From the IMG/VR virus record IMGVR_UViG_3300020438_000021, positions 15,175 through 79,174 of that record: a stretch of 64,000 nucleotides of DNA; one strand, given 5' to 3'. Positions within the stretch are counted from its first letter, which is position 1; the number at the start of each line of letters is the position of its first letter. The notes under the pieces are model-generated. The model was not told the DNA's origin. It saw nothing but the letters and a program-made list of their open reading frames with translations, and did no database searches. Origin of the DNA: a virus. The position numbers and the translations under genes are program-made. Positions 11,862 through 60,320 of the stretch are shown here, one piece after another.

Positions 11862-11973
11862 AGAGATTGGAAGATGTGCAAAATGCAGGAGGATGGGAGT
11901 ATTATGGAAGTCCTACACTGGAAGCGGTGTTTACTGCAAAGCATGTTCCATGAAAGAGTATGTAGGTGAATGA
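11854..11973 (+). CDS. 39-aa CxxC..CxxC microprotein (not in ORF track)
   Basis: MSKEIGRCAKCRR...YCKACSMKEYVGE; overlaps both neighbours. Confidence 0.6.
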   Translation: MSKEIGRCAKCRRMGVLWKSYTGSGVYCKACSMKEYVGE

Positions 11974-13124
11974 AAATGGAAATACCAAGAGAAGCAATAG
12001 AATTAACAATGGAAAGAGAAGATTACGTTACAGCAAAGAGAGAACTAGGAAATGGTAGATGGGATAAGAAACTGAGAGAGAACATGACTTCTCTTTCGGT
12101 TGCTGACAACTACGATGATGCGAAGCATGAGTGGATTGCAACAGGAGAAGTTTGGTGGCAAGGAATCGGAACACCGAGACCCGCATGGGCAGAGAACCAT
12201 CCGAACAAGTGCCTATGTGAGCATCACATTGTATATCATTTCGAGATACATAACACTGAGACTGATGTTAGGGAGTGTGTTGGTTCAGACCACATTAACT
12301 CCTACATGATTCTGAGGGCAATTGTAGAAGAGACAGGTATCAGTGCCGATGCGATTACTGAAGACATGATTCAAGAATGGATTGATGTCAGAGTTGCAGC
12401 ACTAATCAAGGATGCTTGGTGGAGACACAACGGAGAGGACTTTGAGAGAACGTTCAACGAAATCAAGGAGTTGGATTTGAGAGTCAATGTTCGTAGGTCA
12501 GGCAGAAAGGTGTATGACCAGTCTCTAGGCGTTACAATAGATGAGACTAAGATTCGTAAGAAAGGAAGTGGAAGACCGGGTTCTATGGATTACGAGATGG
12601 CCTCTATCGTTTGGCGATGGAATCATCCCGATAACCCGAAGGCTCAGATACACACTAGGGGATATCCTAATGATAAACTAATCACTGACTTGGATATCTT
12701 TCACATGCTGATTGATAGACACAAGGCTACGGTAGCAGCAGAGGATGAGGCTATCGAGACTCAGCAATTGAAGAACGAGGAATATCGAAAGCAGATAGCA
12801 ATCAGGAACAGTGTGCTTCGTGAGAAGAAAGAGCATGAGTTCCATGATGCATGTGAATATTTTGATATCCCAGTGTTCAACCCTGAGATGGGCATCAATC
12901 AATGGGAGAAGAGATTCTTGACAGACATGGAGAGTCGAGTTATCAGACGAAGAGACTTGTCACCGAGGCAAGTTATTAAGTTGAAAGCAATAATCAATCG
13001 CTATAATGATAAGCCAACTGAACGTCAGGTGAATTACCTGCGCTCATTGGGCTACGAAGGTAATACTGAGGATTTAACAAAGGGAGAAGTCTCTAAGTTA
13101 ATAGATGAATACAAGGAGGAATAA
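11970..13124 (+). CDS. Hypothetical protein with CxCxH...CxxxxH metal-binding motif
   Basis: CLCEHHI...CVGSDHI; C-terminal PTERQVNYL...LTKGEVSKLI helical module. Confidence 0.85.
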   Translation: MKMEIPREAIELTMEREDYVTAKRELGNGRWDKKLRENMTSLSVADNYDDAKHEWIATGEVWWQGIGTPRPAWAENHPNKCLCEHHIVYHFEIHNTETDVRECVGSDHINSYMILRAIVEETGISADAITEDMIQEWIDVRVAALIKDAWWRHNGEDFERTFNEIKELDLRVNVRRSGRKVYDQSLGVTIDETKIRKKGSGRPGSMDYEMASIVWRWNHPDNPKAQIHTRGYPNDKLITDLDIFHMLIDRHKATVAAEDEAIETQQLKNEEYRKQIAIRNSVLREKKEHEFHDACEYFDIPVFNPEMGINQWEKRFLTDMESRVIRRRDLSPRQVIKLKAIINRYNDKPTERQVNYLRSLGYEGNTEDLTKGEVSKLIDEYKEE

Positions 13125-13363: not shown

Positions 13364-13570
13364 ATGAAAATGAAATTGATAATACAAGATGACACAGGAC
13401 ACACGGAAATGGAAGTAAACGTAGCAGGTCTCATGGAGCAGATAAACGACCACCCTAACCATTGGGTAGTTGTCGATGAGACAGTAATATTCAGCGAGAA
13501 CATCGCTGATGTTGATTGGGAAACAGTCAATGAAGTTAAACTGATGGAAGAAGTCGTAGGCGGCTACTGA
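13364..13570 (+). CDS. Ubiquitin-like (beta-grasp, SAMP/ThiS-like) protein ending ...VVGG-Y
   Basis: 68 aa; strand-strand-helix-strand pattern (KLIIQD / TEMEV / helix / WVVVD / EVKLM) and a di-Gly followed by one residue; AGGAGG RBS; E1 and JAB genes nearby. Confidence 0.7.
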   Translation: MKMKLIIQDDTGHTEMEVNVAGLMEQINDHPNHWVVVDETVIFSENIADVDWETVNEVKLMEEVVGGY

Positions 13571-13611: not shown

Positions 13612-13636
13612 GAAGGGTGCAACGCCCTTCTTTTTT
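13612..13636 (+). terminator. Hairpin plus T-tract after the Ubl gene
   Basis: GAAGGG-TGCAACG-CCCTTC-TTTTTT. Confidence 0.6.
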
Positions 13637-13658
13637 AACTCAACAAGGAGATGAATTT

Positions 13659-15548
13659 ATGGAAATACAACAAGAGATACTATCAGATATCACTGTGCAT
13701 ATGAAGTATGCAAAGTGGAAAGAAGCAGACCAGCGAAAGGAAACTTGGGAAGAGATTTGTCAGAGAAACAGACAGATGCATCTAGACTCTATCAGAAAGA
13801 GAGACCTACCCGAAGAAACAAAACAGACAATTTACGAGAAGATTCACGACACTTATGATAACTATGTTATCCCAAAGAAGGTACTACCTTCAATGAGGTC
13901 GATGCAGTTTGCAGGTAAGCCGATTGAACTGTCACCAAACAGGGTATACAATTGTGCATACATGCCTATCGACCACTACTTGTCTTTCTCAGAAGCAATG
14001 TTTCTATTGCTAGGAGGAACAGGTGTTGGCTACTCAGTGCAGAGGCATCATGTAGACCAGTTGCCTGAGATTAGGTTGCCCAACCCAAAGAGAACTTACA
14101 GACATCTAGTTGCAGACTCCATCGAAGGATGGGCAGATGCAGTCAAGGTTCTGTTTGAGTCTTACATTGGTAAGAGAGCAACGACAGTTAGATTCGACTA
14201 TTCAGATGTCAGGCCAAAGGGAAGTCCACTGAAGACCAGTGGAGGGAAAGCACCCGGCCCACAACCTCTGAAAGAATGTCTAGTGAAGGTCGAAGGTATT
14301 CTCGCTAACAAGAACAACGGCGACAAACTAACCACATTAGAAGCACACGATATCGTTTGCTATATTGCAGATGCAGTATTGGCAGGTGGTATTCGCAGAG
14401 CAGCACTAATCAGTCTGTTCAGTGCAGATGACGATGATATGATAACATCTAAGTCAGGACACTTTTGGGAGAAGAACCCACAGAGAGCAAGAGCAAACAA
14501 CTCAGTGGTTCTACTACGACACAGAATCAAGAGGGACTTCTTCAACAATCTATGGAAGCGAGTTCAAGATTCAGGTTCAGGTGAACCCGGATTTTATTTC
14601 AGCAACGATAAGGATTGGGGAACTAACCCTTGCTGTGAAATAGCACTCAGACCGTATCAGTTCTGTAACTTAACAGAAGTGAATGTGTCTGATGTGTCTA
14701 GTCAGTCCGACCTTAACAAGAGAGTAGAACATGCTACGTTCTTAGGAACACTGCAAGCATCCTACACTGACTTCCACTATCTAAGGGAAGTTTGGAAGAA
14801 GACATCTGAGAAAGATGCTCTGCTTGGTGTGTCAATGACTGGGATAGCAAGTGGTAGAGTTCTAGACTTAGATATGGAGTCTGCTGCAAACAAAGCAAGA
14901 AGCACGAATGAGTTCTTCGCTAATGCATTGGGTATCAATACCGCAGCGAGGATAACTTGTGTCAAACCTGCTGGAACTACCAGTCTAGTTATGGGAACAT
15001 CATCAGGTATTCACGCTTGGTGGTCTGAGTATTACATCAGGAGAATTAGGGTGCTAAAGACAGAAGCAATCTACAACTATCTGATAACCAAGTTCCCTGA
15101 TTTAGTGGAGGATGACTACCACAATCCGAATCAGGCTATCATCTCCATACCTCAGAAGACTCCCGATGGGACTTCGATAACAAGAGATGAATCAGCATTG
15201 GAGATGTTGGAGAGAGTGAAGAAAGTATCAGTCGATTGGGTTGTAACAGGACACAATCGAGGTGTCAACACTCACAATGTTTCTGCAACTGTCAACATCC
15301 GTGAGGATGAATGGGATGATGTAAGGAACTGGATGTGGAAGAACAGAGACTTCTACAATGGTCTATCTGTTCTACCGTTCGATGGTGGTGTCTACAAGCA
15401 AGCACCTCACGAACCGATAAGCAAGAAGCAATACGAAACTATGCTCAGACTTCTGACTGAAATCAATTTGACAGAAGTAGTCGAGTTAGAAGACAACACC
15501 GACTTGCAAGGAGAACTTGCTTGTGCAGGTGGAGTCTGTGAAATATGA
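13659..15548 (+). CDS. nrdJ: Class II (adenosylcobalamin-dependent) ribonucleotide reductase
   Basis: YNCA, GGIRRAALI, TNPCCEI, FCNLTE, VKPAGT, C-terminal CAGGVCEI; start revised to ATG 13659 after GGAGATGA. Confidence 0.95.
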   Translation: MEIQQEILSDITVHMKYAKWKEADQRKETWEEICQRNRQMHLDSIRKRDLPEETKQTIYEKIHDTYDNYVIPKKVLPSMRSMQFAGKPIELSPNRVYNCAYMPIDHYLSFSEAMFLLLGGTGVGYSVQRHHVDQLPEIRLPNPKRTYRHLVADSIEGWADAVKVLFESYIGKRATTVRFDYSDVRPKGSPLKTSGGKAPGPQPLKECLVKVEGILANKNNGDKLTTLEAHDIVCYIADAVLAGGIRRAALISLFSADDDDMITSKSGHFWEKNPQRARANNSVVLLRHRIKRDFFNNLWKRVQDSGSGEPGFYFSNDKDWGTNPCCEIALRPYQFCNLTEVNVSDVSSQSDLNKRVEHATFLGTLQASYTDFHYLREVWKKTSEKDALLGVSMTGIASGRVLDLDMESAANKARSTNEFFANALGINTAARITCVKPAGTTSLVMGTSSGIHAWWSEYYIRRIRVLKTEAIYNYLITKFPDLVEDDYHNPNQAIISIPQKTPDGTSITRDESALEMLERVKKVSVDWVVTGHNRGVNTHNVSATVNIREDEWDDVRNWMWKNRDFYNGLSVLPFDGGVYKQAPHEPISKKQYETMLRLLTEINLTEVVELEDNTDLQGELACAGGVCEI

Positions 15549-15844
15549 ATAGGGAACAAGTCCTAGCAATAGAAAGCGATGTCATCGATAGGATGGCTAA
15601 CGCTGGTGCGAAGGAAAGTCTCTCTAACTTATACAAGAGGACTAGGGAAGATGGGAGGAAAACCCCATCTACTCTAGTTCTCAACAGAATCAGATATTAT
15701 ATTCGGTTAGGTTATACCGATTTATCGACAGAGGAATTAGAGTCTCTGTATAATAAGAAACTATACTATGAAAGAAATGGTGATGATAATGAAAATAAAA
15801 ATGGAACTACCAAGAATAAGAAGCGACAGGGAAAGGACTACTGA
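15545..15844 (+). CDS. Hypothetical protein
   Basis: ATGA-coupled ORF. Confidence 0.65.
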   Translation: MNREQVLAIESDVIDRMANAGAKESLSNLYKRTREDGRKTPSTLVLNRIRYYIRLGYTDLSTEELESLYNKKLYYERNGDDNENKNGTTKNKKRQGKDY

Positions 15845-17009
15845 AACAAGTTCATTTCTTTGTAAGACCAATAGATACCACAGGCATCTAACTTCAAGGA
15901 ACGTTAATCGCTATGGTGAAATATACATCAGGATAACTAACAGAGATAGTCTATCAAAGAAGAAGTTTCATGAGAACGCTTATTGGAACACGTTTGCGAA
16001 GCATATGTATGATATATTCGTGCAGACTAATGAAAACAGTAAGTCCGATGAGAGGACATGGATAACATTCCGATACCCGAATGGTGAGGCTTCAGTCATA
16101 CTACGAAAGACTGGTAGCACTATCTACATGAATGGTGTGAAGAAGAACCAAGTCGATGTGTCTATGGCTCTTGCCAAGATTATTGCCTATGGTTCTATGA
16201 CTAGATGTGCAGATACGATGGAGTCATATATTGACAGGAACGTTACTTACTCTGCGAACATACTGTATGCATTACAGAACAGAACGCCTTATTGGATGTT
16301 CTCTGAAGGCACTCAGTATAATGTCAAGATTAACACTAATCTAATAAGCAGGGAAGAAGTGGCATTTGAGATTTCAAAGAACATTTGGGGTTCGTTGCCT
16401 ATCGAGGAAGCAAACACATTCATCGACTGTTACAGGAACAAAGCACAGAGGTCAAAGAAATGGGCTAACATCAGCCCTTCTAATTTGTGGTTCAATATGT
16501 TTGGCTCTCATGCCACTGAGTCAGAAGAGGCTTTGATGAAAGCGTGGTTGATGCAGAACAGAACTGATTGGATTGTGGAAGAGAGAGCATTCACCTTACT
16601 GAAAGGAATGGATAAGAAAGAGCAATATACATTAGTTGACTTAAAAAAGCCACCTTTCTCTAATCTAAGATTAGAAGGCAAATCTAAAAACTATCATTTT
16701 GCCATGCATATTAAAGGACAGTTGGGAGATTGGCTGTGTTATCCTAATAACAACCAATCAGGAACACAAAGATGTAAGTTGGTGTTCCTCACTTCTCTTA
16801 ATGAGTTTCAAGGTCCATTCTGTGTTGATGATGTCAATGGAAGAAATGTAATGGGAGACCAAATATCAACGAGGTCAACCCTCGTCTACAATGACACCGT
16901 GGCGACTAAGATTGTCAGGACTCTAACTGATGTCAAGGCAACTAACTTCAGAGTTCCCGATGCAACGTTAAAGGCTGCTAGATTCACGGAGGACATAACA
17001 TGGAGATAG
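15768..17009 (+). CDS. Hypothetical protein; C-terminal region is a candidate divergent E2 (UBC-like) domain
   Basis: MHIKGQLG...KLVFLT-SLNEFQ-GPFCVD loosely matches E2 IxGP...KVxFxT...GxICLD; no HPN motif. The CDS is solid, the E2 call is inference. Confidence 0.35.
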   Translation: MKEMVMIMKIKMELPRIRSDRERTTETSSFLCKTNRYHRHLTSRNVNRYGEIYIRITNRDSLSKKKFHENAYWNTFAKHMYDIFVQTNENSKSDERTWITFRYPNGEASVILRKTGSTIYMNGVKKNQVDVSMALAKIIAYGSMTRCADTMESYIDRNVTYSANILYALQNRTPYWMFSEGTQYNVKINTNLISREEVAFEISKNIWGSLPIEEANTFIDCYRNKAQRSKKWANISPSNLWFNMFGSHATESEEALMKAWLMQNRTDWIVEERAFTLLKGMDKKEQYTLVDLKKPPFSNLRLEGKSKNYHFAMHIKGQLGDWLCYPNNNQSGTQRCKLVFLTSLNEFQGPFCVDDVNGRNVMGDQISTRSTLVYNDTVATKIVRTLTDVKATNFRVPDATLKAARFTEDITWR

Positions 17010-17902
17010 TCATGGCATGTCCTGAATGTGGAGAGCATGATAGTTTCTTTGATGATGTGCTAGGTGAGAATGTATGCAATGGTTGTGGGTTGGTTCAAGT
17101 TATCAGGCCGTTTGAGGAAACCACATCAATAATAAAGGATGGTAATCAAACACATGAGCCAACGAGAAGGTTAGGTTCTCTAATCATGGAGACAAAATCC
17201 AACTATAATCATAATCAGATGGTTAGAATGAAGAAGCACAACCTGTATGCGGCTGCGTTGTCTGAGGCAGATAACAGGACTATCGTTTTATCTCAGATGA
17301 TTCTATCTAACTATCAAGTCAGTTCCTCTATCAAGAAGAAGGTAGAGGAATACCTTCGTTCTCTGAATATTGAGCATGTGTTTAGAGGTGCTTCTGTTGA
17401 ACACAGAGCAGCATCCTTGACCTTCTTCATATTGAAGGAAAGCAAAGTGCCTATGAACATAAGAGAGCATAGTAGATACTCGATGGTTGAGAGGAAGTAT
17501 ATCTCACGTTGGGGTAAGAGAGTAGCAAGGCACTTCAGGAAGTCATATGTATTCACACAAGAGAATGCTATGAGAACGGCATCATCCATCTTAGATAGAT
17601 TGGATGAGATACCCACAGGATATCGAATGGAAGCGATGAGCATGATTCAGTTCTTGGAGACCTTCTACCAAGAGCAGCATTTGAGATTCTCACCGAACAA
17701 GGTTGTTGCTGGATTGTGGGTCGCAGGAAGAATGCAGAGAAAATACAGAGTAACTCAAGAAAGTCTAGTGAAGGCTTCGGGTAACACAACATCAGCAATG
17801 GGGTTGAGAGAACAGGTGAGAGAGATGCAGAATATGTTCGGTCTATCGAAAGAAGACCTATACAGCCTATCTGTGTCTGATTTTGTATCAGGAGCGTATT
17901 AA
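17000..17902 (+). CDS. tfb: Transcription factor B (TFB/TFIIB) homolog
   Basis: N-terminal zinc ribbon CPECG...GENVCNGCGLV then two cyclin-like repeats (RGASVEHRAA; SPNKVVAGLWVA..VTQESL). Confidence 0.85.
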   Translation: MEIVMACPECGEHDSFFDDVLGENVCNGCGLVQVIRPFEETTSIIKDGNQTHEPTRRLGSLIMETKSNYNHNQMVRMKKHNLYAAALSEADNRTIVLSQMILSNYQVSSSIKKKVEEYLRSLNIEHVFRGASVEHRAASLTFFILKESKVPMNIREHSRYSMVERKYISRWGKRVARHFRKSYVFTQENAMRTASSILDRLDEIPTGYRMEAMSMIQFLETFYQEQHLRFSPNKVVAGLWVAGRMQRKYRVTQESLVKASGNTTSAMGLREQVREMQNMFGLSKEDLYSLSVSDFVSGAY

Positions 17903-18146
17903 GATGGAAGAGTTAATTGAAACACTAAAGAGAATGCAATACCACTTCAGTAAGTTCATTGAAGAGTATGAGAATCTACCACAGTTGAAGAACGTTGTCA
18001 GGAGAACAGTGCTAGAAGACGCAATATCTGTTGTCGGAGCGACAATGGATGGAATAACAAATGAGATAGTTGATGCTTGGCATCATTATCAACAACAAAT
18101 GATAGACAACAATGTAATAGATATAGGTGATGAAAATGATGAATAG
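17883..18146 (+). CDS. Hypothetical helical protein
   Basis: ORF between TFB and E1; likely start at MEELIE. Confidence 0.65.
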   Translation: MYQERIKMEELIETLKRMQYHFSKFIEEYENLPQLKNVVRRTVLEDAISVVGATMDGITNEIVDAWHHYQQQMIDNNVIDIGDENDE

Positions 18147-18729
18147 AAGAATAATGATAATCGGAGCAGGTGGAATTGGTAGTTTCCTAACACAATTCCT
18201 TCAGAGACTAGGATATAGAATAACAGTGTTTGATGATGATGGTGTTGAGAGGAAGAACATCGGATATCAGAACTTCAGTGTTAATGATATAGGAGAGAAC
18301 AAAGCAAGTATTCTAGCAGACAGAATATGGGACACATCCTTTCGTGGCACAGTCAACGATGAGCCTTTCAAGGTTCTAACAGCAAAGCAGTTACAGGGCT
18401 ACAACTTGGTTGTGTGTTGTGCAGATAATCTTGCTGTAAGGCGTTTATTGTATCAGCAAGGGTTTGGTGCAGATGCCAAGTTGAAGTGGCTAGACCTGCG
18501 AGCGCAGGGCAGGAATGGGGTATTGGTATCCTATCTAGCAGACCCTTCTATGAAGAGACTTGCAGATGGTGCTGATGGTTCATTCTCATGTCAAGCACAG
18601 TCTTGGGATGGGACTGCTAAGGATATTGATTGCATGAATATCGTAATTGCTGCAACAGCAGCACAATGGATACAGAAGTGGTTCAACGATAACAACGATG
18701 TCAAAGACATGATGGTGTTGAACATATGA
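18127..18729 (+). CDS. ThiF/MoeB/E1-like adenylyltransferase
   Basis: IIGAGGIGS nucleotide-binding loop, DDDGVERKNIGYQ, GENKA, CADNLAVR, WLDLR, candidate catalytic FSC. Confidence 0.9.
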   Translation: MMKMMNRRIMIIGAGGIGSFLTQFLQRLGYRITVFDDDGVERKNIGYQNFSVNDIGENKASILADRIWDTSFRGTVNDEPFKVLTAKQLQGYNLVVCCADNLAVRRLLYQQGFGADAKLKWLDLRAQGRNGVLVSYLADPSMKRLADGADGSFSCQAQSWDGTAKDIDCMNIVIAATAAQWIQKWFNDNNDVKDMMVLNI

Positions 18730-19200: not shown

Positions 19201-19496
19201 TTCACTTCCGAATCTTAGACAAAACTCTCTGTGGTGCTGACTACAAAGAGCCTAGTGAGAAAGCAGCGAAAGATGGTAGGATTTGTGATGACTGCATCCA
19301 AGTGATGTGGAAGGAACAATACAGAAGAAACGTTCTCAGAGTAAAGCAGCCTACACAACAAAAGGTCAGTTTAACCGAGAAATGGGAAAAGGCTTGGGAA
19401 GAAACTAACAAGGAAGAGGTTGTAGTCGAAGAACCTCGATTGTCTCCACCTAGAGCAATCAAATCGCTTCGACATTATATGAAGGTGAAAGCATGA
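19197..19496 (+). CDS. Hypothetical protein with H..C..CxxC zinc motif
   Basis: ATGA-coupled. Confidence 0.7.
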   Translation: MIHFRILDKTLCGADYKEPSEKAAKDGRICDDCIQVMWKEQYRRNVLRVKQPTQQKVSLTEKWEKAWEETNKEEVVVEEPRLSPPRAIKSLRHYMKVKA

Positions 19497-19735
19497 CAAA
19501 GGAAGATGCAAATATAGATGACATAAGCGAAGAAGACATAGGCCGGATGTTGACCATTATATCAACAGATGGATACTACAAACAGGCGATGATTGTAAAG
19601 GTCGTTTGCCCTGTTTGTGGCGAAGAGTTCTTGGGAACTAAGAGACATGCTGGTGGATTCATAGCAGGACACAGAGCATATCATGAGTTTGAGAACGAGC
19701 AGGATATGAGAGTAAACCAAATGGGAGGAATATAA
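19493..19735 (+). CDS. C2H2-type zinc-finger protein
   Basis: CPVCGEEF...GHRAYH. Confidence 0.7.
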   Translation: MTKEDANIDDISEEDIGRMLTIISTDGYYKQAMIVKVVCPVCGEEFLGTKRHAGGFIAGHRAYHEFENEQDMRVNQMGGI

Positions 19736-19737
19736 TA

Positions 19738-20289
19738 ATGAAAACAAATGAAACAGAATATGAAAATGGAATAATAGAAGGATTGGAAGTAAAGGATGAG
19801 AATTGGAAGGAGGATATTAGAACTGTATTTAACAATATAGAGTTCAACTATCCTTTCCCTGACCCACAGACAGAGGCATTCTACACAGTGATATGGAACA
19901 AGTCTCTTGAGGCGTTTGATTCGCCAAGAGAAGTACAGGTAATCGTAGATGCGAAAGACGACTTGTATATGAGTGTAGGAACTTTCGGATTTGTGAGTTT
20001 CAAGAATCAAGGTGAACAACTAGATGGAATGAAAACCCCCTTGAAATGTTGGATACACACACATCCATTCGGTCAGGCTTTCTTCAGTGGAACTGATTGG
20101 AAAACAATCAAGTCATGGAGAGGTATGATGGAAAGTGCAACAGTTCTTGGAGATAACCAGTTCATTGCATATGACCCAAAGACCGAGATAGCGAAGAAAG
20201 TTCACTATGGTATTTACAGACAAGAGCCTGTTGAGAAGCCTGAGTGGGTAAAGGCAGCAGAAGATGTATTGGATGGTGAAGAGGAATGA
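19738..20289 (+). CDS. JAB/MPN+ (JAMM) zinc metalloprotease, Ubl-processing/deconjugating
   Basis: Upstream catalytic Glu (REVQV) and complete JAMM motif WIHTHPFGQAFFSGTD. Confidence 0.9.
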   Translation: MKTNETEYENGIIEGLEVKDENWKEDIRTVFNNIEFNYPFPDPQTEAFYTVIWNKSLEAFDSPREVQVIVDAKDDLYMSVGTFGFVSFKNQGEQLDGMKTPLKCWIHTHPFGQAFFSGTDWKTIKSWRGMMESATVLGDNQFIAYDPKTEIAKKVHYGIYRQEPVEKPEWVKAAEDVLDGEEE

Positions 20290-30031: not shown

Positions 30032-30805
30032 ATGAAAATGAGAATAGAAATAAACAATAAAACACTAACAAACGCAATAGAAGATGTATGGATGAAAGGA
30101 AAGTATCACAATGGCGATTCAGCAAAGAACGGTCAATTAACCGATTATGCAATGCTTGAACTCGTTGAAGGTAATATACTGAATCTATACAATGCTGACA
30201 ATCAAACCATCTGTCGAGTGTCTGTACCTATAATTAGTCAGACAAACGAAGACAGCAATAATATGGTTGTAGTAGAGATAGACAAGATACTCAAGTATCT
30301 TAAGACATTCACAGGAGACAGGGTTCAGTTAGTTGCTGAAGACTTTATCCTATTACAAGACGAAGGCGGAGGAAAGAGGGCAAGTTTACCACTAGTTGTT
30401 AATCATCCTAATGCAGCGATGATTGCTAGGATTCAAGGCTACACTATTACTCCTGAGAATCCTGTCTTTAGTAGTGTGGTCTTTGAGTCTATCATTACCA
30501 CAGGCTCTAAGATACTAACAGATGCAATCAAGACTTGTGATGTTATCAACAACGCAAAGTATCTGTTAGATACAGACAATCAACACTTCACCATTTCAAG
30601 CAGGAAGTCTGACATTGACAAGGTAGATGTCATAGTTTCTACGCTATCTATGAATGGTGAATCAGCAACGGTAGAAGTAACTGGTCAGTTCCACAAGTTC
30701 TTTCGTGGTTCTGTTCCTGTGACTATCTACTTGAAAGACGAGTCTCCTGTTATATGGGCAGGAGAGGATAGAATACTAATCAAAGCCCCATACATTACAA
30801 GGTGA
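30032..30805 (+). CDS. pcn: DNA sliding clamp (PCNA-like)
   Basis: About 257 aa with a two-domain clamp pattern, C-terminal ILIKAPY, immediately upstream of PolB; GGAGG RBS. Confidence 0.75.
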   Translation: MKMRIEINNKTLTNAIEDVWMKGKYHNGDSAKNGQLTDYAMLELVEGNILNLYNADNQTICRVSVPIISQTNEDSNNMVVVEIDKILKYLKTFTGDRVQLVAEDFILLQDEGGGKRASLPLVVNHPNAAMIARIQGYTITPENPVFSSVVFESIITTGSKILTDAIKTCDVINNAKYLLDTDNQHFTISSRKSDIDKVDVIVSTLSMNGESATVEVTGQFHKFFRGSVPVTIYLKDESPVIWAGEDRILIKAPYITR

Positions 30806-32490
30806 TTACAATGATAATAGCAAACACGAAAGAAGGTATCTTCCTGAGATGGAGAGATGCAGAGAAGAAGGTTGTAGAGGAAGAGATTCCCTATGCCGAC
30901 TTCTCTCCATATTTCTTTGTGGAGGCTTCTAATATCGTTAATGTTGACGCTGAATCTAAGGTTTTCTTGAAAGAGGGATACCAACAGAAGGATAAGTTTC
31001 CTGCAACTCTAACTTATGAGAGCGGTGATTGGGTAAACCTTCAAGGTGATTCACTTGTGAAAGTGACATGGACACCACATAAAACTATGAAATCCGATGC
31101 TAGGAATGTAACGAGTAAAGTTAGAGCATACTATCATGATAGAGACATACCAACGTATGAAGCAGATGTTCAACACCATTATCGATATGCTGTCGATAGA
31201 TTGGATAAACTGAACGATTACAATCTAAGGAAATGGTATTGGGATATGGAATGGATGCAAGGTGGAGAGCATGATGGTGCGATTACTGCTATCGTTGTCT
31301 ACGATAACTATGATGATGAGTATTACACATTGACATGGCTTCCTGATTCAAGTGAGACTGAGAGAACAGTGCTTGAGAGATTCATGTTGATGCTAACTGA
31401 GAAAGACCCTGACATGCTTATCTCATGGTTCGGTTGGAAGTTCGATGTACCTAAGTTAATCGAGAGGCTACACACAAATGGAATCGACCCAAGACTACTA
31501 TCTCCTGTTCACGAAGTAACAGGTGTTGAATGGAATATCAAGGAGAGAAAGAGAATACTGAAGACTAAGCAGATAGAGAACTACTCTCCGATTGCTCAAC
31601 CAATCAAAGGTAGAATATGCGTACCTCTAGACTTGGCCTTTGAGAGACAATGGAATGATGCACAAAGAGGAACTTTACCTTCACTGTCACTAGACTATGT
31701 TTCAGAGTATGTCTTAGGTGAGAAGAAACTAGTGAGCGAGAAGTTTCCCGATAAGAATGAGTTCTTCAGGAGAGGCTGGCAAGAAGACAATGAGACATAT
31801 CTAGAGTATGCCTTGAAAGACGTTGAACTAATCAAGAGGATAGACGATGAGAACTTCACAACTGAAGCAATACTCTCGTTACAACGTTTACTGATTGCAC
31901 CGTTCGATGCTTGCTTCTACGCTAGTAACATGGGTGGAATATACTTCATGAGAAATGCCTCATGGAAAGCACCTACGGGCAGGAAAGGAGACAGGGTAGA
32001 GTATGATGGTGCGATGGTCTATGACCCGCTTAGTGAAGGCACAAATGGTCTTCATTTGGGTGTTGCAGCATTTGACTTCGCTGGTCTGTATCCAAGCATG
32101 ATGATTGCAAGAAATATCTCTTGGGAGACTAAGTCTCAGACACCTACACAATTTGGTGTAAATCTTAGAACACCAAAAGACTTCTCTAAGGTAGAAGACT
32201 ATGACATGAGATACTACAATAGTAATGAACTAGGGTTATTGCCAAAAGCAGTTCTAGAGTTGAAAGAACTGAGAAACGAATACAAAATGAAAATGAAAGA
32301 AAGTGAAAGTAAAAGTGAATATGTGAAATGGAACAACAACCAACTTGCAGTCAAGAGATTGATGGCATCCTTCTATGGTATCATTGCGTATCAGGGATTC
32401 GGTTGGGCTGATGTTGATTTAGCGGCAAGCATCACTGCTAGTGCTAGAGAAGCCATTCGCATTGCAGCATTCAAAGTGAGGGAACTATAA
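30802..32490 (+). CDS. polB: Family B DNA polymerase, N-terminal part (3'-5' exonuclease, motifs A and B)
   Basis: WDME, WFGWKFD, YALKD exonuclease motifs; DFAGLYPS; KRLMASFYG; ends before motif C. Confidence 0.95.
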   Translation: MITMIIANTKEGIFLRWRDAEKKVVEEEIPYADFSPYFFVEASNIVNVDAESKVFLKEGYQQKDKFPATLTYESGDWVNLQGDSLVKVTWTPHKTMKSDARNVTSKVRAYYHDRDIPTYEADVQHHYRYAVDRLDKLNDYNLRKWYWDMEWMQGGEHDGAITAIVVYDNYDDEYYTLTWLPDSSETERTVLERFMLMLTEKDPDMLISWFGWKFDVPKLIERLHTNGIDPRLLSPVHEVTGVEWNIKERKRILKTKQIENYSPIAQPIKGRICVPLDLAFERQWNDAQRGTLPSLSLDYVSEYVLGEKKLVSEKFPDKNEFFRRGWQEDNETYLEYALKDVELIKRIDDENFTTEAILSLQRLLIAPFDACFYASNMGGIYFMRNASWKAPTGRKGDRVEYDGAMVYDPLSEGTNGLHLGVAAFDFAGLYPSMMIARNISWETKSQTPTQFGVNLRTPKDFSKVEDYDMRYYNSNELGLLPKAVLELKELRNEYKMKMKESESKSEYVKWNNNQLAVKRLMASFYGIIAYQGFGWADVDLAASITASAREAIRIAAFKVREL

Positions 32491-32687
32491 TGCCAATAAA
32501 GAGTGCAAGCATTGACTTCTCAAAGGTCAAGGAAGAGAAATTGTCTGAGTCGGAGTTAAGAAAGCAAGCAATTCGTCAGTTAATGAAGGACAGCAGGGCA
32601 ATAGCAAGGACAACTAGCAAGATTGTCGCTGGTTTTGTCTTCTTGTATGGTTTGGTTTCACTTTTACAGGATGTGAATGTAATATGA
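32490..32687 (+). CDS. Small membrane protein inserted in split polB
   Basis: TAATG coupling; C-terminal TM helix. Confidence 0.65.
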   Translation: MPIKSASIDFSKVKEEKLSESELRKQAIRQLMKDSRAIARTTSKIVAGFVFLYGLVSLLQDVNVI

Positions 32688-32800
32688 ATATAGAAAAGTG
32701 GTCACAAGACAGATTTGCAACACTAGCATTGGCTAGAACAGTATTTGGCTTTCTAAAAGTCATAATTGCAGTAATTGTAGCAGTGGAGTTGGTATTATGA
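32684..32800 (+). CDS. 38-aa membrane peptide inserted in split polB (not in ORF track)
   Basis: MNIEKWSQDRFATLALARTVFGFLKVIIAVIVAVELVL; ATGA overlaps at both ends. Confidence 0.65.
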   Translation: MNIEKWSQDRFATLALARTVFGFLKVIIAVIVAVELVL

Positions 32801-33732
32801 AGGTAGTTTATGGACATACGGACTCGATTTACGTTGATATTGAAGACAACAGCATTGAAACTGCTGAAAAGGCGTTGAAAATACTGAATGAACATGTTAG
32901 AGAGGCATTTCCTAATGTAATGGGCTTGAAGGAACATCCTGTAACACTAGAGTTTGAGAAATACTTCAGAACTTTAGGTGTTGGAGCAACAAAAAATAGA
33001 AATGCAGGTCTAATTACTTGGAAAGATGGTAACTTCCTTGATGAAGAAGAGTTTGTGATGACAGGATTCACTGCAAAGAGGGTTTCTCTGACTAAACTAG
33101 CCAAAGATGTTCAATTGTCAGTGCTTAACATGTGGGTTGAGGGTAAATCGGAGCAAGAAATAGTCTCTTATCTGAATGATAAGTACAATTCTGTCATGCA
33201 AGGTAAGATTCCACTATCAGATGTTCTACAAAGAAGTAGATTCCGTGAAGAAAGGTTCAGATTAGTATGCAAGGTATGCAATCCAAAGGCTAGATTCGAC
33301 AAAGGATGGAGTAACAAGTCAGTTAGTGTGTTTGACTTGATGCAACATGGTGGATGTATAGATGACATGGGTAGAGTAATGGAGCATTCTAACTTCGTTA
33401 CTGTTGGAGGCAAGCGACCAACATTTGGTTCGGGAGTTGAGGGAGTGCTGTTTAGCCATTCACAGGGATATGAAAAGATAGAGGATACCTATCTTTATCT
33501 TAGAATCAAGAATTGCAGGGAGCATTACATGCATCCTGTAACTAGGGAGTTCACAACTCCCAATTATGTATCTAGATTAACTGCCGATGAGTTTGATGAC
33601 TTTGACCCTGATTGGTCACATTATGCAGAATCGGTAGTTAAGAAAGCAGAACCTATCTTCAGAGCAATGGGATGGAACACAATGCAGATAAAAAGAGACA
33701 CACAGCAATCCTCTTTGGAGGAGTGGTTTTGA
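32797..33732 (+). CDS. polB: Family B DNA polymerase, C-terminal part (motif C, thumb, PIP box)
   Basis: MKVVYGHTDSIYV, LEFEK, C-terminal QQSSLEEWF. Confidence 0.95.
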   Translation: MKVVYGHTDSIYVDIEDNSIETAEKALKILNEHVREAFPNVMGLKEHPVTLEFEKYFRTLGVGATKNRNAGLITWKDGNFLDEEEFVMTGFTAKRVSLTKLAKDVQLSVLNMWVEGKSEQEIVSYLNDKYNSVMQGKIPLSDVLQRSRFREERFRLVCKVCNPKARFDKGWSNKSVSVFDLMQHGGCIDDMGRVMEHSNFVTVGGKRPTFGSGVEGVLFSHSQGYEKIEDTYLYLRIKNCREHYMHPVTREFTTPNYVSRLTADEFDDFDPDWSHYAESVVKKAEPIFRAMGWNTMQIKRDTQQSSLEEWF

Positions 33733-40411: not shown

Positions 40412-43400
40412 TCATGTCTCCCTGAATGTTATTGCAGCCCTAACAGGACCAACCTGCGTATCAGTGTATCCTGACAATCCGGTTGCTCTCAAGTTGAATG
40501 TATCACCTGCTGAGTATGTAGTCCCGTTCCCACTGAAGGATGTAAATTCCTTTGAGAACTGATTACCACCACTTCCACTTGCATTGTATGTGAATGTGGT
40601 AGTTGATGCAGACCTGTTTTTGAATACTGTAATCGTCTGATTGGAGGAGTTCGTTTCACTTCCGTTATTCCCAAAGGACAGATGTATGCTGACTAACTCA
40701 CAATCTTTTGGTATAGGGAAACCAATATCAGAGCCTGAAGAACTCCGAGTTGTGTTTTGTTCTGCGTCACCATAGCCCAAGAAGAATCCATTTGCATTTC
40801 CTGCTCCTGCCGTTGATGTAACGTAAAAGTCTCCTTCGGCAGCATTTATGACAAACTCCCTATCAGCAGGAGTAGATAACTTCCTGATGCTGATTTGCGA
40901 TTGGTTAACCTCAGTTGAGATGTTTGTATTCTGCTGTGCATCTATTCTTATCCTGATGTAATCGTTAGCAGTATGCTGATAGATGAAAGAGGCAGAAAGA
41001 CCTGAACCACCGGAAGCCTCTCTTGTGTAGACCTGTGACCTTGACTGTGTGATAGTTGTGAGGTTAGAAGAAAAGGAATCGTTGCTCGCAGTCTGAGCGA
41101 AGGCGAATATCCTTGTTCTGTCAGCCCCAGTGCTACCATCATCATTAATGGGAAGGCTGTAAGAAACCTCATAGTATCCAGCATCAACGATTCTGATATG
41201 TCCATCAGCACCTTTCGATGCGTTGCCTGAAGGGTCTAATACCTCAGTATCGAATGGTATGGTTCGCTCTGTTAGGTCTACATCGGTGTTTCCACTGTCC
41301 ATATACACAACAGGCTTCGACCCGTCACTCTCTGCACTACTTCCTCCACCTGCGTTTGCATCTACATACGCCTTGACAGATTGTTGTGTCGGTACTCTTG
41401 AAGCGGAGTTTGAAGCCATGTTGTCTTCGTCAATTGCTGCAAGGACTGAGTTACCTGCTACTAGCAAATCGTTGAAGTGTCCTTCTGACCATCGCTTTCC
41501 ATCTTGTCCAAGTGCAACAACTCCATTACCACCCGGTCTGATTATAGTATCTTGAATTATGAACTGAACAGTATTGTCTATCGCAAAAGACATGTTATTA
41601 TCAGTTGCAAAATCAATGTAGGCATCGGATGCTCCATAACCTACTTTCAACGAGGAGTTCAGAATAGAAGTAATGCCTGTTTGTGCTGCCGTTACTGCCA
41701 TATCATTTGCATTAGCGGTTATACCAGTTCCACCAATTACATTGAGTGTAGCAGAACCACTTGATGCTCCACCAGTTAAACCAGTACCTGCTACAACTGC
41801 GGTAATATCACCACTACCACCTGCACTAGCAACAAGGTCAATTGTACCATCAGCATCCTGATACGTTGCAGTAATGTTAGTCTCAGTGTTACTAGAGAAC
41901 ATCGCACCTACGATATCTTGCACTTGTTCAGTAGTAAGATTAGTATTTGTATCAGTAGTATAGCCATAAGCCTCAATCTTCTCCTTGATTGCTTGAGAAG
42001 TCATTAGGGAAGTGTCATTATCGGAGAAAGAAGTGTTGATTGTAGTGACTCTAGCACCAGTTCCAACCTGCAAACCTGAATCGCTTATGTTCATCCTAGC
42101 AGTTGAACCAGTGTTGAAGGACTGAGTATCTGTACCAAATGTGATAGTGTTATTCGTATCTCCGGTGTGGACAATACCAGTTGAAGTTGAAATGAATCCA
42201 TTTACATCTAGTGGGAAAGCAGGACTCGTAGTGCCTATTCCGATATTACCACCATCAGTTAATATTGACAGACGTGCTATCGAATTATCTGTATAATCTT
42301 CTGCGGCATTGTAACTGGACATGGGGCTGCTTGTTCCTGCGGATAATTCTAACCTGCCTCTTCCATACGCATCAGTAGCGACAAACCTAACGCCAGCACC
42401 TATCCTACTACCTGTCTGTCCCGATGAGTCCTCGTTATTGTAGAACAACAGAGAGCCTATCTTGTCATCAGCAGCATAATCAGAATCTCTAGCATTGAGT
42501 AAGATAGTGGGGTTATTGGTAGCAGTGACATCAAGTAACGCTCTAGGAGTAGTAGTACCTATTCCGAGCCTACCCACATTTGTTAGTCTCATTTTTTCTG
42601 TTGCGGCTTCTGATGTTGCCGTCTTGAAAACTAAAGCCGCAGTGTTAGCAGTATCGGTAAAGTTTGCTTCTGCAACCGCAGAAACGGAAGCGGCTACTAA
42701 TCTCGCATCTCCATCTGTGCCGTCCCCTTCACTACCTGCTGCCCACTCTATAACACCCAAATCATCTGTATCGCTTACTGTGGTGTCACCCGTAGACAAT
42801 CTGATTATCGGGTCTGCTGACGCACTTCCATAGAACGTAGTTCTCATTGAGCCATCGAATTGCATTCTATCTGAGTTTGCTGATACGATGAAGAAGTCGT
42901 CACTGCTTGTTGTTCCTATCTTTCCGCCCCAAGTTTCTGCCCACATCTTTACAGTAGCATTACTTGAGCCATTGGTATTGTAAACTTGAACAAAGGTAGG
43001 GGCTAATGTTGCCAAATCTGTTGAATCATTAATAAATAGTGAACCACTAAGTTGTATGTCACCTGCTACATCTAATTCTTTAGCAGGAGTTGAAGTTCCT
43101 ATTCCGAGTTTACCATCATTGAGGAGATACATTTTCGTTGTACCTCCTGCTTGGAAGAAGATATCATCATCAGCATGTAGAGTCAAGTCATCACTTGCAG
43201 CCAATGTGACATCAGTTCCAGTCGAGTTCCAACCCAAGAAGGATGTTGCATCATCTACACTCAGGTATACTTTACCTGCTGTGCCAGTGACTCCTACTTC
43301 TAAGTCGCTTCCTACTATGACCTTGTTATTGACAGCATCCAAGTCAAGCATCTTGACATGAGCAGAACCACTGTGGGCATACAACTCCAAGTTGTCAGAA

Positions 43401-46400
43401 CCGTTGTATGTCTTGATGTATCCCGGTCCTGAGCCATAGCCGAGGAATAGACCATTCATGGTGGCAAAGCCATCAGCAGTAAGTAATGCTGAACCTGCTT
43501 GGTTAACATTTCCAACGCTTATCGAACCAGTGTATTTCACGTTGTCATCGGTCTGTGTTCCGAATACTATGTCTCCACCTAAGTCTGAGTTAAGTGCAGC
43601 GACAACCTCTGCATCACTCAGTTGTGTATTTGTGTTAGTTATCGCTCCTGTTGCTGCACCAAGGTATCCCCATTGTGCTGCTGATATCGTTGTAGAACCT
43701 ATGTTCTCTAACTGCGCTCCCTCTGCTGCTGTTAAGTTGGATATCTCAGTGACCTTGCTTGCTGTTATAGTAGGAATGTTAGATGCTGACAAACCACCAT
43801 CGAGTATGTTTATCTCAGCAAGTGAGGCAGTTATTCCTAGATTCGTTAATGCATTACCTTGTTGAGTTGAAGTTAATCCTTGATTGCTGACATCTACTCT
43901 CAATCTGTTTCCTAGAGAAGTTGCAGTTGTGGTTGAGAATGATGCATCATCTCCTAACGCTGCTGCAAGTTCATTTAGAGTGTTAAGTGCTGAAGGTGCT
44001 GAAGCAACGATTCCTGCTACCTCTGCATCAACGTATGCCTTGATAGATTGCTGGCTCGCTGCGGCTGTTGCACTATTGGAACTCATGTTGTCTTGGTCAA
44101 GAAGAGTCAATTGTGTATTTGCTGTCATATCGTCTACAACAAAATTGATTCTACCGTTAGTATCATCATAGGAGACTCCTATTCTTGTTTCTGTTCCAAC
44201 AAGCATACCACCTACAATGTCTTGAACCTGCTCAGTAGAGAGTTGTGTGTTAGTATTCGCCGTCATATCATCTACGACTAAATCGATAGTCCCGTCACCA
44301 TCTTGATATGTGGCTGATACTCTCGTTTCGGTATTGCTACTAAACATAGCACCAACTATATCTTGTACCTGTTCTGTGCTTAATTGAGTATCTGTGTTAG
44401 TAATTGCTCCCGATGCCGCACCTAAGTAGCCCCATTGTGCTGCGGAGATTGTTGTTGAGCCTATATTTTCTAATTGCGCCCCTTCATCTGCTGTTAAGTT
44501 ACTTAATTCAGTTACTTGTGATATAGCAATTGTTTTGTTGCTTAAGGTCTGAGAACCCGATAGTGTAGCAACTGTATTATCAATAGCAACTGTTACTGTA
44601 TCTGTATTACCAACTACTGTATCTATTCCTGTTCCACCCGCAATATCTAATGTATTACCATGTGCGATAGTTTGGTTAGTACCGGAATCTCCTGTTAAGG
44701 TAAAAGTAGTTAATTGATTTGTATTAGTATTAGCAGTCATATCATCCACTACCAAATCGATAGTGCCATCTCCGTCTTGGTAGGTAGCACTTATCCTAGT
44801 CTCAGTATTTGAACCGAACATCGCTCCTACAATGTCCTGCACCTGTTCTGTTGAGAGTTGAGTATTGTCATTAGCAGTCATATCGTCTACTACCAAATCA
44901 ATTGTTCCGTCACCATCCTGATACGTTGCACTTATTCTTGTCTCGGTGTTTGAACCGAACATTCCTCCGACTATATCTTGAACCTGTTCTGTGGTAAGTT
45001 GAGTGTTAGTGTTGGCAGAATTAAGAGTTATCGAATCCCCGCTTGTAGTAATTGTCATCCCACCAGCCGCCACCAGCGTTAGAGTATCAGTTGTTGAGTC
45101 AGCCGCAGCAGTCGTTTGCCCACTTACTGCCACATTGCTGAAGGCATTCTGATTGTTCTCTCCACCTGCACCTGCTGCTACAAGAGTGAAGCCTCCACTT
45201 GTATCATCATAACTTAGTAAATAATTATCAGTAGAAGAGTTTGCAGTATTTGTTGTACTTATTTTGGCTGCTGTGATAGCGTCATCAGCAATTCTTGCAG
45301 TTGCGAAAGTTCCCGAAGTTATTTTGCTTGCAGCAAGACTTGGTATTCTAGCAGTTCCTAGTGTTCCACTTGTTATTTTGGAAGACGCTAAGTTTGGTAT
45401 ATCACTTGCTGCAAGCCCATCGTCTAGTATGTTTATTTCTGCTAAGGAAGCGGTAATACCTAGATTTGTTAGGGCATTTCCTTGTTGGGTTGAAGTAAGT
45501 CCTTGATTACTAACGTCAACTCTTAATCTGTTTCCTAACGATGTAGCGGTTGTTGTGGAGAAAGAAGCATCGTCACCAAGAGCAGCAGCGAGTTCGTTCA
45601 AGGTATTGAGAGCAGATGGTGATGAGTCTACTAGTCCTGCAACTTCGCTATCGACATATGCCTTTATTGACTGTTGACTAGCAGCAGCAGTTGCACTATT
45701 AGTTGCAAAATTATCTTCGTCAAGTAATGTCAATTGAGTGTTTGCTGTCATGTCATCTACTACGAAATTAATCCTACCATTTGTATCATCATAAGTAACG
45801 CCGATTCTTGTTTCAGTACCTACTAACATTGCACCTACAATATCTTGAACTTGTTCTGTGGATAATTGTGTATTCGTATCAGCAGTCATGTCGTCAACGA
45901 CTAAATCTATTGTTCCATCTCCATCTTCGTATGTTGCAGATACCCTAGTCTCCGTGTTGCTTGTGAACATAGCACCGACAATATCCTGAACTTCTTCAGT
46001 TGTTAGTTGGGTATTGGTATCTGTGGCAGCAAGTGTTAGTGTTCCCGCCGCATCATCATACGTTTTGGTTATGTTAGAACCTGCTACGATTACACCTGCT
46101 ACAAAGTCCTCGACTTGCTCTTGGGTTAGTTGGGTATTCGTATCTGTTGATACGAAGTTTAACTTACCACCTGTATCATCATAAGTCACTGCAATATTGG
46201 TTTCTGTTCCTCCATCTACCATTGCCCCAATTATGTCTTGAACGTTTTCAGTAGTGAGAATAGTATCAGTGGTGAATGTGAGATTGCTCTGCATGTATGA
46301 TTGCAGTACACTGACATCCATTCTCTTCAATGTACCAGCATCACTGAGAACCAATTCATCAGTAGAATCAAGCCCACTAGTCAATGCTGTTTGTCCTGTA

Positions 46401-46669
46401 ATATCCCCTATCACGAAGTTGGATGCTCCTGAAGAAGCAAAGTTCTGTGCTGCTATGTAGTCGAAAACTGCATCACCAGTGACTAGGTTAGCATTACCAT
46501 CAGCAACTGAGCCAGTTGTTGCGGCTATCGTGGAATCAAATGACAAAGTTCCATCGTCATTGATTGTGATTGTCTTCGTAGCGTTATCAGCACCAGTTAC
46601 CTCTATCTTTGGGTTTGCACTCTGTCCGGTGTTTGGCGTAATTAGAATGTCCTTATCTGAGTTAGCCAT
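40412..46669 (-). CDS. Long repeat-rich tail fibre / receptor-binding protein 1
   Basis: About 9 TQLxxEQVQDIVG repeats, ALNTLNELAAALGDDA repeats, GxLGIGTxxP beta repeats, beta-sandwich-like C-terminal domains. Confidence 0.8.
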   Translation of the reverse strand: MANSDKDILITPNTGQSANPKIEVTGADNATKTITINDDGTLSFDSTIAATTGSVADGNANLVTGDAVFDYIAAQNFASSGASNFVIGDITGQTALTSGLDSTDELVLSDAGTLKRMDVSVLQSYMQSNLTFTTDTILTTENVQDIIGAMVDGGTETNIAVTYDDTGGKLNFVSTDTNTQLTQEQVEDFVAGVIVAGSNITKTYDDAAGTLTLAATDTNTQLTTEEVQDIVGAMFTSNTETRVSATYEDGDGTIDLVVDDMTADTNTQLSTEQVQDIVGAMLVGTETRIGVTYDDTNGRINFVVDDMTANTQLTLLDEDNFATNSATAAASQQSIKAYVDSEVAGLVDSSPSALNTLNELAAALGDDASFSTTTATSLGNRLRVDVSNQGLTSTQQGNALTNLGITASLAEINILDDGLAASDIPNLASSKITSGTLGTARIPSLAASKITSGTFATARIADDAITAAKISTTNTANSSTDNYLLSYDDTSGGFTLVAAGAGGENNQNAFSNVAVSGQTTAAADSTTDTLTLVAAGGMTITTSGDSITLNSANTNTQLTTEQVQDIVGGMFGSNTETRISATYQDGDGTIDLVVDDMTANDNTQLSTEQVQDIVGAMFGSNTETRISATYQDGDGTIDLVVDDMTANTNTNQLTTFTLTGDSGTNQTIAHGNTLDIAGGTGIDTVVGNTDTVTVAIDNTVATLSGSQTLSNKTIAISQVTELSNLTADEGAQLENIGSTTISAAQWGYLGAASGAITNTDTQLSTEQVQDIVGAMFSSNTETRVSATYQDGDGTIDLVVDDMTANTNTQLSTEQVQDIVGGMLVGTETRIGVSYDDTNGRINFVVDDMTANTQLTLLDQDNMSSNSATAAASQQSIKAYVDAEVAGIVASAPSALNTLNELAAALGDDASFSTTTATSLGNRLRVDVSNQGLTSTQQGNALTNLGITASLAEINILDGGLSASNIPTITASKVTEISNLTAAEGAQLENIGSTTISAAQWGYLGAATGAITNTNTQLSDAEVVAALNSDLGGDIVFGTQTDDNVKYTGSISVGNVNQAGSALLTADGFATMNGLFLGYGSGPGYIKTYNGSDNLELYAHSGSAHVKMLDLDAVNNKVIVGSDLEVGVTGTAGKVYLSVDDATSFLGWNSTGTDVTLAASDDLTLHADDDIFFQAGGTTKMYLLNDGKLGIGTSTPAKELDVAGDIQLSGSLFINDSTDLATLAPTFVQVYNTNGSSNATVKMWAETWGGKIGTTSSDDFFIVSANSDRMQFDGSMRTTFYGSASADPIIRLSTGDTTVSDTDDLGVIEWAAGSEGDGTDGDARLVAASVSAVAEANFTDTANTAALVFKTATSEAATEKMRLTNVGRLGIGTTTPRALLDVTATNNPTILLNARDSDYAADDKIGSLLFYNNEDSSGQTGSRIGAGVRFVATDAYGRGRLELSAGTSSPMSSYNAAEDYTDNSIARLSILTDGGNIGIGTTSPAFPLDVNGFISTSTGIVHTGDTNNTITFGTDTQSFNTGSTARMNISDSGLQVGTGARVTTINTSFSDNDTSLMTSQAIKEKIEAYGYTTDTNTNLTTEQVQDIVGAMFSSNTETNITATYQDADGTIDLVASAGGSGDITAVVAGTGLTGGASSGSATLNVIGGTGITANANDMAVTAAQTGITSILNSSLKVGYGASDAYIDFATDNNMSFAIDNTVQFIIQDTIIRPGGNGVVALGQDGKRWSEGHFNDLLVAGNSVLAAIDEDNMASNSASRVPTQQSVKAYVDANAGGGSSAESDGSKPVVYMDSGNTDVDLTERTIPFDTEVLDPSGNASKGADGHIRIVDAGYYEVSYSLPINDDGSTGADRTRIFAFAQTASNDSFSSNLTTITQSRSQVYTREASGGSGLSASFIYQHTANDYIRIRIDAQQNTNISTEVNQSQISIRKLSTPADREFVINAAEGDFYVTSTAGAGNANGFFLGYGDAEQNTTRSSSGSDIGFPIPKDCELVSIHLSFGNNGSETNSSNQTITVFKNRSASTTTFTYNASGSGGNQFSKEFTSFSGNGTTYSAGDTFNLRATGLSGYTDTQVGPVRAAITFRET

Positions 46670-60319: not shown

Positions 60320-60320
60320 T

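Follow-up and report, generated by a model that had tools for sequence, protein, structure and literature searches.

Does a virus that encodes a ubiquitin-like protein (Ubl), an E1-type activating enzyme and a JAMM protease also encode an E2-type carrier to go with them? This question is raised by the window considered here, a stretch of 64,000 nucleotides covering positions 15,175 to 79,174 of the 79,174-bp virus record IMGVR_UViG_3300020438_000021 of IMG/VR, in which an open reading frame (ORF) called X413 lies between the gene of the candidate Ubl and the genes of E1 and JAMM. A sequence-only reading had proposed a highly divergent E2 at the C-terminus of its 413 amino acid product. This interpretation is partly supported by UBC-like topology, an invariant cysteine and the Ubl/E1/JAMM context, while membership of X413 in the UBC (ubiquitin-conjugating) family is unproven. 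The best explanation, at about even odds, is that X413 carries Ubl on a cysteine in the manner of an E2, as a far-diverged protein of a new family that brings recognition domains of its own in the N-terminal part. The gene content of the virus is the one usual in magroviruses, tailed viruses that infect Marine Group II archaea. The gene and the parts of its product are located as follows.

15768-17009, plus strand: X413, longest ORF of 413 amino acids, a core protein of magroviruses whose family has no name.
15789-16277, plus strand: N-terminal region (residues 8-170), a beta-hairpin plus an alpha/beta unit, fold not assigned.
16278-16553, plus strand: conserved middle domain (residues 171-262), five strands and three helices.
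16551-16967, plus strand: C-terminal UBC-like domain (residues 262-400), from its model and the nearest solved folds, which are E2, UEV and RWD.
16812-16829, plus strand: GPFCVD motif with the candidate catalytic cysteine 352 (codon 16821-16823).

The ORF is present as had been read from the letters and overlaps the gene of the viral transcription factor TFB, which starts at 17000 inside the 3' end of X413, by 10 nucleotides. Its conservation in relatives identifies X413 as a real gene. Gene callers give it 402 to 413 amino acids, and as relatives begin with MKIKM or at the residue aligned with methionine 12, the true start is probably methionine 8 (15789) or methionine 12 (15801), so that the protein probably has 402-406 amino acids. 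The 5' end is overlapped, by 44-77 nucleotides depending on the start, by a conserved ORF of 99 amino acids on the plus strand (15545-15844), whose conservation among relatives is restricted to its first approximately 81 residues.

Besides 25 close full-length homologs, the family comprises 115 clusters among 1.84 billion representative proteins (E ≤ 0.001), whose members are all unnamed or "hypothetical". Homologs have 380-480 amino acids, with a full range of 91 to 487 over the clusters and no fused forms. An alignment of 117 members, with identities down to about 20%, yielded a conserved core from about residue 107 to 388. The first hundred residues or so of the N-terminal region are variable, and in the middle domain asparagine 171, proline 174, tyrosine 175, alanine 199, glutamate 201, tryptophan 207, proline 237, and leucine 240 are near-invariant. 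In the C-terminal domain the invariant or near-invariant residues include glutamine 263, asparagine 264, arginine 265, arginine 273, glycine 317, aspartate 321, tryptophan 322, glutamine 334, aspartate 354, glycine 363, aspartate 364, glutamine 365, arginine 369, asparagine 375, aspartate 376, threonine 385, and arginine 395. Cysteine 352, whose conservation had been suggested as a check, is present in 116 of the 117 members; the sole exception, P0068, matches residues 87-331 only and has an unalignable C-terminus. The other cysteine of the strings which had been quoted, cysteine 336 in CKLVFLT, is a valine in most members.

The active-site segment of E2 enzymes reads G-x-[IV]-C-[LI]-D. The family consensus around cysteine 352 is G-P-I-C-I-D-N, which is nearer to the G-x-I-C-L-D form of this segment than the GPFCVDD of the copy in the window. 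As the relaxed pattern G.[ILVFM]C[ILVM][DSN] occurs three times in the six-frame ORFs of the window, the short motif alone is not beyond chance and its weight rests on its conservation. The caution that the resemblance might be coincidental applies to the motif as a string of letters; the conservation of the cysteine exceeds chance. No conserved histidine was found anywhere in the family, which is compatible with an E2 and argues against Cys-His hydrolases; papain-like, NlpC-P60 and OTU-type enzymes were ruled out on this ground, and cathepsin rows in the Foldseek output had a template modelling (TM) score of 0.13.

Comparison with profile collections gave no name to the family. The whole protein has no family match in Pfam, PHROG, padloc, and NCBIfam (the latter two at E ≤ 1), the C-terminal domain alone yielded one stray padloc match (DruH, E 0.015) and no E2-type model, a search of PDB sequences with the family profile gave no match, and look-alikes in the ESM Atlas gave no usable one.

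More can be said from predicted structures. The AlphaFold2 model of the full-length protein, with a mean predicted local distance difference test (pLDDT) score of 79.9 and a predicted TM score (pTM) of 0.59, consists of three alpha/beta units, for which an internal duplication was considered and rejected, as hhalign between the sub-alignments detected none. Residues 255-413, modelled separately from 104 sequences, gave a confident model (pLDDT 88.3, pTM 0.83). It starts with a helix alpha1 (266-282), which is followed by a meander of four strands, beta1 (287-291), beta2 (311-316), beta3 (321-327), and beta4 (336-341), a short beta5 (347-351), cysteine 352, helices alpha2 (362-374) and alpha3 (376-382), and a short helix (398-403). 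The strings picked out beforehand fall into place on these elements, with FAMHIKGQLG at 311-320, CKLVFLT at 336-342, SLNEFQ at 343-348 and GPFCVDD at 349-355; the helix said to follow them is the one at 362-374, which appears in both models. In the C-terminal model the order of elements is that of a UBC domain, and the cysteine is placed as in E2s in the connection between beta4 and alpha2, 11 residues past the former and 10 ahead of the latter. Model residues 14-128 align with residues 9-121 of Ubc9, the cysteine being number 98 in the model and 93 in Ubc9; judged from these aligned ranges alone, cysteine 352 is predicted to lie close to where E2s have theirs.

Searched with Foldseek, neither model has a significant match in the PDB, and in BFVD only three unnamed homologs of X413 itself were found. 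The sub-threshold matches of the C-terminal model include many E2s (E 0.2-1.5, TM 0.30-0.36), re-alignment of the top 1000 left almost exclusively E2s, and residues 265-397 of the full-length model gave the same E2-dominated list. Atg3, Atg10, and Ufc1 are absent among the best 50 fold matches listed. As by our estimate chains of the UBC superfold can be only a small share of the 48,161 representatives, such purity is far from random; the scores themselves are lower than the typical noise maxima of the tool. Taken together, UBC is the nearest known fold of the modelled C-terminal domain, with agreeing topology, and homology is not established. The resemblance to the UBC core which had been read from the sequence stood as far as the order of elements and a nearly pure UBC list of folds are concerned, and did not stand as a significant structural match or as a match to an E2 profile.

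RWD and UEV domains match the C-terminal model as well as true E2s do, which brings in a second explanation, that X413 is a non-catalytic adaptor of the UEV/RWD kind which binds Ubl or its conjugates non-covalently and in which the cysteine is structural. The absence of the His-Pro-Asn (HPN) motif would suit such a protein, and the co-variation with Ubl described below would suit a binder too. UEV and RWD families are, however, characteristically UBC-like folds without the active-site cysteine, whereas X413 has an invariant one in the active-site loop. Conservation of a lone cysteine in 116 of 117 members, across identities of about 20%, suits a reactive residue better than one that serves packing, and cysteine 352 is preceded by G-P and flanked by the invariant aspartate 354. 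An adaptor of this kind is improbable.

Another line of evidence for the E2-like carrier comes from the genes around X413.

13364-13570, plus strand: candidate Ubl precursor, 68 amino acids, ending in VVGG-Y.
13617-15548: class II ribonucleotide reductase, between Ubl and X413.
17000-17902, plus strand: viral TFB/TFIIB-like gene (Zn_Ribbon_TF, E 3.8e-6).
18127-18729, plus strand: minimal ThiF-type E1 of 200 amino acids (ThiF, E 1.5e-18), a bare adenylation domain.
19493-19735, plus strand: g80, a second small GG-ended protein of 80 amino acids, with CPxC...H...H and ending in MGG-I.
19738-20289, plus strand: JAMM/MPN+ metalloprotease whose E...HxH...S..D motif (WIHTHPFGxAxxSxxD) is complete.

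The C-terminal GG of Ubl is invariant and followed by one or two variable residues in relatives. Ubl has neither a Pfam match nor a match to a ThiS or MoaD profile. In E1 cysteine 155, within GSFSCQ, is invariant. The best profile matches of E1 are PRTRC_ThiF (60 bits, the best in NCBIfam) and the padloc Cap2 "E1-E2" model (46), compared to 47 for ThiF. PRTRC_ThiF and Cap2 systems include E2-like proteins, which speaks for an E2 in the virus too, although the margin over ThiF/MoeB models is small. The NCBIfam model of UbaA also matches this E1, and the Cap2 and BilD models match E1 alone.

These properties also recall a sulfur carrier system, in which the small GG protein would be of the ThiS/MoaD type and trimmed by JAMM as in CysO/Mec+ or QbsE/QbsD, with cysteine 352 of X413 serving as a persulfide or thiocarboxylate relay or X413 as an acceptor enzyme for thio-modification. 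The classic layout of such systems combines a GG extended by one or two residues with a JAMM and a small E1 like ThiF, and the scores of E1 against ThiF/MoeB models come close to those against E1s of the conjugation type. Among the ORFs of the window that were scanned, though, no partner such as a rhodanese, a cysteine desulfurase, ThiG/MoaE/CysM or a TtuA-type protein was recognised, X413 matches rhodanese or TusA neither in motif nor in fold, and the missing ThiS/MoaD profile match of Ubl speaks in the same direction, which makes this explanation very improbable.

Gene order was compared in 30 plus 80 IMG/VR loci seeded on X413, with identities from 100% to about 28%. Wherever the locus is long enough the order g384-Ubl-(ribonucleotide reductase in about half)-X413-TFB-E1-(g80)-JAMM-...-ligase is constant. 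X413 lies between Ubl and E1/JAMM in all 110 loci, and it is found in 69 of 77 loci seeded on E1, the remaining eight being cut less than 1.3 kb upstream of E1. TFB directly follows X413 in all 80 related loci checked and in the further set of 30. Since all these loci belong to one viral lineage with a frozen gene order, co-occurrence alone says little, which takes weight from any argument for an E2 built on neighbourhood.

Co-variation was therefore chosen as evidence independent of gene order. Pairwise distance matrices of 80 non-redundant loci were compared in a mirror-tree analysis in which the distances of ligase and g137 were regressed out. The C-terminal third of X413 gave a partial r of 0.45 with Ubl, unchanged under three control sets and the highest for any two different proteins tested, compared to 0.29 with E1, 0.05 with the physically adjacent TFB, and -0.01 with JAMM. 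For the N-terminal two thirds the values were 0.32-0.39 with E1 and 0.20-0.23 with Ubl. As this N-terminal part is nearer to the Ubl gene and co-varies less with it, shared recombination blocks do not explain the Ubl signal. As support for a partnership of X413 and Ubl these correlations are suggestive and no proof; the permutation p-values ignore phylogenetic structure. A predicted complex of E1, Ubl and full X413 was uninformative, with a score of 0.52 that was also obtained when an unrelated protein replaced E1.

Several further observations weigh against a carrier of the E2 type. As had been seen from the sequence, the HPN motif, which E2s have about 8-10 residues ahead of the cysteine, is missing: neither a conserved histidine nor a Pro-Asn or asparagine is found at 340-348. 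Some accepted E2s, Atg10 and Ufc1, are likewise without HPN. The loops flanking cysteine 352 are about 4-6 residues shorter than in Ubc9 and UbcH5, as estimated from element positions only, in agreement with the shorter loop noted before. The invariant polar residues aspartate 364, glutamine 365, arginine 369, asparagine 375, aspartate 376, and threonine 385 in alpha2 and alpha3 are atypical of E2s and may belong to an active site of another kind. The low fold scores given above belong here as well, as does a Pfam hmmscan of 104 family members which detected no E2, UEV or RWD family at E ≤ 1. The viral E1 is without a UFD-type E2-binding domain, and to our knowledge conjugation in archaeal SAMP/UbaA and Urm1/TtuB-type systems involves no E2.

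Much of this is what would be expected if the Ubl/E1/JAMM trio worked free of an E2, like SAMPylation or Urm1/TtuB, and X413 were another enzyme or factor belonging to the early transcription/replication module, such as a partner of TFB, with a likeness to UBC that is one of general topology only. The adjacency of X413 and TFB with overlapping stop and start is universal, fold scores are within the range which the tool assigns to common arrangements, HPN and a profile match are lacking, the dense invariant polar set near alpha2/alpha3 is unlike E2s, the minimal E1 has its own invariant cysteine 155, and Ubl systems free of E2 are the rule in archaea. On the other hand, the list of nearest folds is almost purely of the UBC superfold rather than mixed, the loop that corresponds to the active-site loop of E2s holds a single invariant cysteine within a local motif like theirs, and once shared divergence is removed the C-terminal part co-varies with Ubl (0.45) and not with TFB (0.05). 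This explanation is the main rival; we regard it as unlikely, although it deserves serious consideration.

The E2-like carrier can also be set against known systems. Like canonical UBC/E2 proteins (UQ_con PF00179; Ubc9, UBE2S, UbcH5), X413 has, in its model, their order of secondary structure elements, and further a single reactive-looking cysteine in the beta4-alpha2 loop within a G-x-hydrophobic-C-hydrophobic-D motif, and the genomic partners Ubl, E1 and deconjugating protease by which prokaryotic E2-like families are recognised. Neither by sequence nor by a strong structural match could X413 be linked to the E2s without HPN (Atg10, Atg3, Ufc1) or to E2/E3 hybrids that carry large additional domains (UBE2O, BIRC6). 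Among described systems the nearest are BilABCD, Cap2/Cap3, and Bub of bacteria and SAMP/UbaA/JAMM of archaea. BilABCD consists of a Ubl (BilA), an E2 (BilB), a JAB-type deubiquitinase (BilC), and an E1 (BilD) with IAD, AAD and CYS domains (PMC10557695), whereas the magrovirus E1 has only 200 amino acids. No padloc or NCBIfam model of the E2-like proteins of Bil, CBASS Cap2 or 6A-MBL systems matches X413. Bub is reported to form oxyesters and to have an E1 without catalytic cysteine (10.1101/2024.11.21.623953), whereas the magrovirus E1 and X413 each have an invariant one. Bacterial Bil, Cap2/Cap3, and Bub are host defence operons, in contrast to the magrovirus set, which is a core module of an archaeal virus. 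With SAMP/UbaA/HvJAMM1 this set shares a small GG protein of beta-grasp size, a ThiF-type E1 with a loop cysteine, a JAMM, and the archaeal setting. It differs in the length of its E1, which falls about 70 residues short of the UbaA model with its 270 positions, and in that SAMPylation has no known E2, whereas the viral set has an extra UBC-like protein with an invariant cysteine.

If X413 is such a carrier, its C-terminal approximately 140 residues would be a highly diverged UBC-like domain acting as carrier or ligase of the virus's own Ubl system. JAMM would trim the residue or residues past the GG of the 68 amino acid Ubl, the 200 amino acid ThiF-type E1 would adenylate the exposed glycine and may hold Ubl on cysteine 155, Ubl would then be handed to cysteine 352 of X413 as a thioester, and from there it would reach lysines of targets recognised by the N-terminal and middle domains. 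X413 would in this way resemble an E2/E3 hybrid, a single-chain transferase. Because of the invariable coupling of X413 to the viral TFB gene the transcription machinery is one candidate target. Tentatively, with somewhat more doubt than confidence, this can be extended to the proposal that magroviruses encode a complete self-contained Ubl cascade, which would be the first such cascade known in a virus of archaea. Its carrier would be a virus-only and hitherto uncatalogued branch of UBC fused to target-recognition domains, a single-chain E2/E3 by which proteins of the host or of the virus are tagged, those of the transcription apparatus perhaps among them.

The virus encodes no further E2 that could be recognised, as UQ_con PF00179, PF14457, PF14460, and PF14461 gave no six-frame match in the 79-kb record; PF14459 and PF14462 were covered by the Pfam scans only. 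Upstream of Ubl there is always g384 (11970-13124, plus strand), a conserved protein of 384 amino acids with no family match and with the conserved motifs CLC.H...HF, VGS, and SIVWRWNHP.N. Its HPNKCLC was dropped as a real E2 signature, as only CLC.H and not HPN is conserved. The ribonucleotide reductase, an enzyme placed in magrovirus group B by the original magrovirus paper (PMC5434244), stands between Ubl and X413 in 40 of 80 loci. It is absent from the rest, where Ubl and X413 are near neighbours, and looks like an insertion into the Ubl module. The g80 gene lies between those of E1 and JAMM, and its hidden Markov model is found beside E1/JAB in only some distant loci. Its motif reads CPxC...GTKRHAGGFIAGH.A.HEFEN, and its C-terminal GG is strictly kept and followed by one variable residue (MGG-I/V/T/A/Q) in 28 of 28 related loci checked. 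By analogy to the conjugation of CD-NTases by Cap2, g80 may serve E1/JAB as another substrate to be activated at its C-terminus, one that is not a beta-grasp protein.

Elsewhere the virus encodes an ATP-dependent DNA ligase, RFC, and Cas4-like and ERCC4 nucleases. A family-B DNA polymerase (30802-33732, plus strand) is split into two ORFs of 562 and 311 amino acids about 300 nucleotides apart, and such a split polymerase is a described property of magroviruses. On the minus strand of the window three consecutive giant ORFs of 2085, 2119, and 2322 amino acids extend over 40412-60355, and these are followed by an ORF of 868 amino acids with no Pfam match.

For each cluster of the X413 family which was looked up the longest contig did not exceed about 96 kb, and only contigs of viral size were found there. 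One IMG/VR record of 184,733 bp with the X413 block, IMGVR_UViG_3300021958_000021, has about twice the usual length of a magrovirus; it may come from a larger relative, be a concatemer or chimera, or derive from a provirus within a cellular contig. Among GTDB genomes X413 occurs on three short contigs only (NZ_NZTP01000030.1, NZMJ01000151.1, and CAXBMW010000043.1), in metagenome-assembled genomes labelled as the bacteria Altibacter, Maricaulis, and Balneolaceae. These contigs carry the magrovirus block g384-Ubl-X-TFB-E1-JAMM-ligase at about 36% GC and are almost certainly of viral origin, having been wrongly binned with bacteria.

In the literature on magroviruses no account of a Ubl system or of an E2-like protein was found, and no mention of ThiF, JAB or ubiquitin was found in the magrovirus papers examined. 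Conjugation of Ubl proteins with a true E2 step was long regarded as a eukaryotic property, and only of late has it been demonstrated in defence operons of bacteria (PMC10557695; 10.1101/2024.11.21.623953) and in a few archaea (PMC5654768). If its C-terminal domain is not an E2, X413 is still an unexplained core protein of the magrovirus order with an invariant cysteine. If it is one, it would add to the UBC fold a new branch that has diverged very far and is without HPN, and with a Ubl of 68 amino acids, an E1 of 200, a JAMM and one carrier the system would be compact and easy to rebuild in vitro. Its lineage-wide occurrence would then mean a viral, offensive use of Ubl conjugation chemistry in abundant ocean viruses of archaea.
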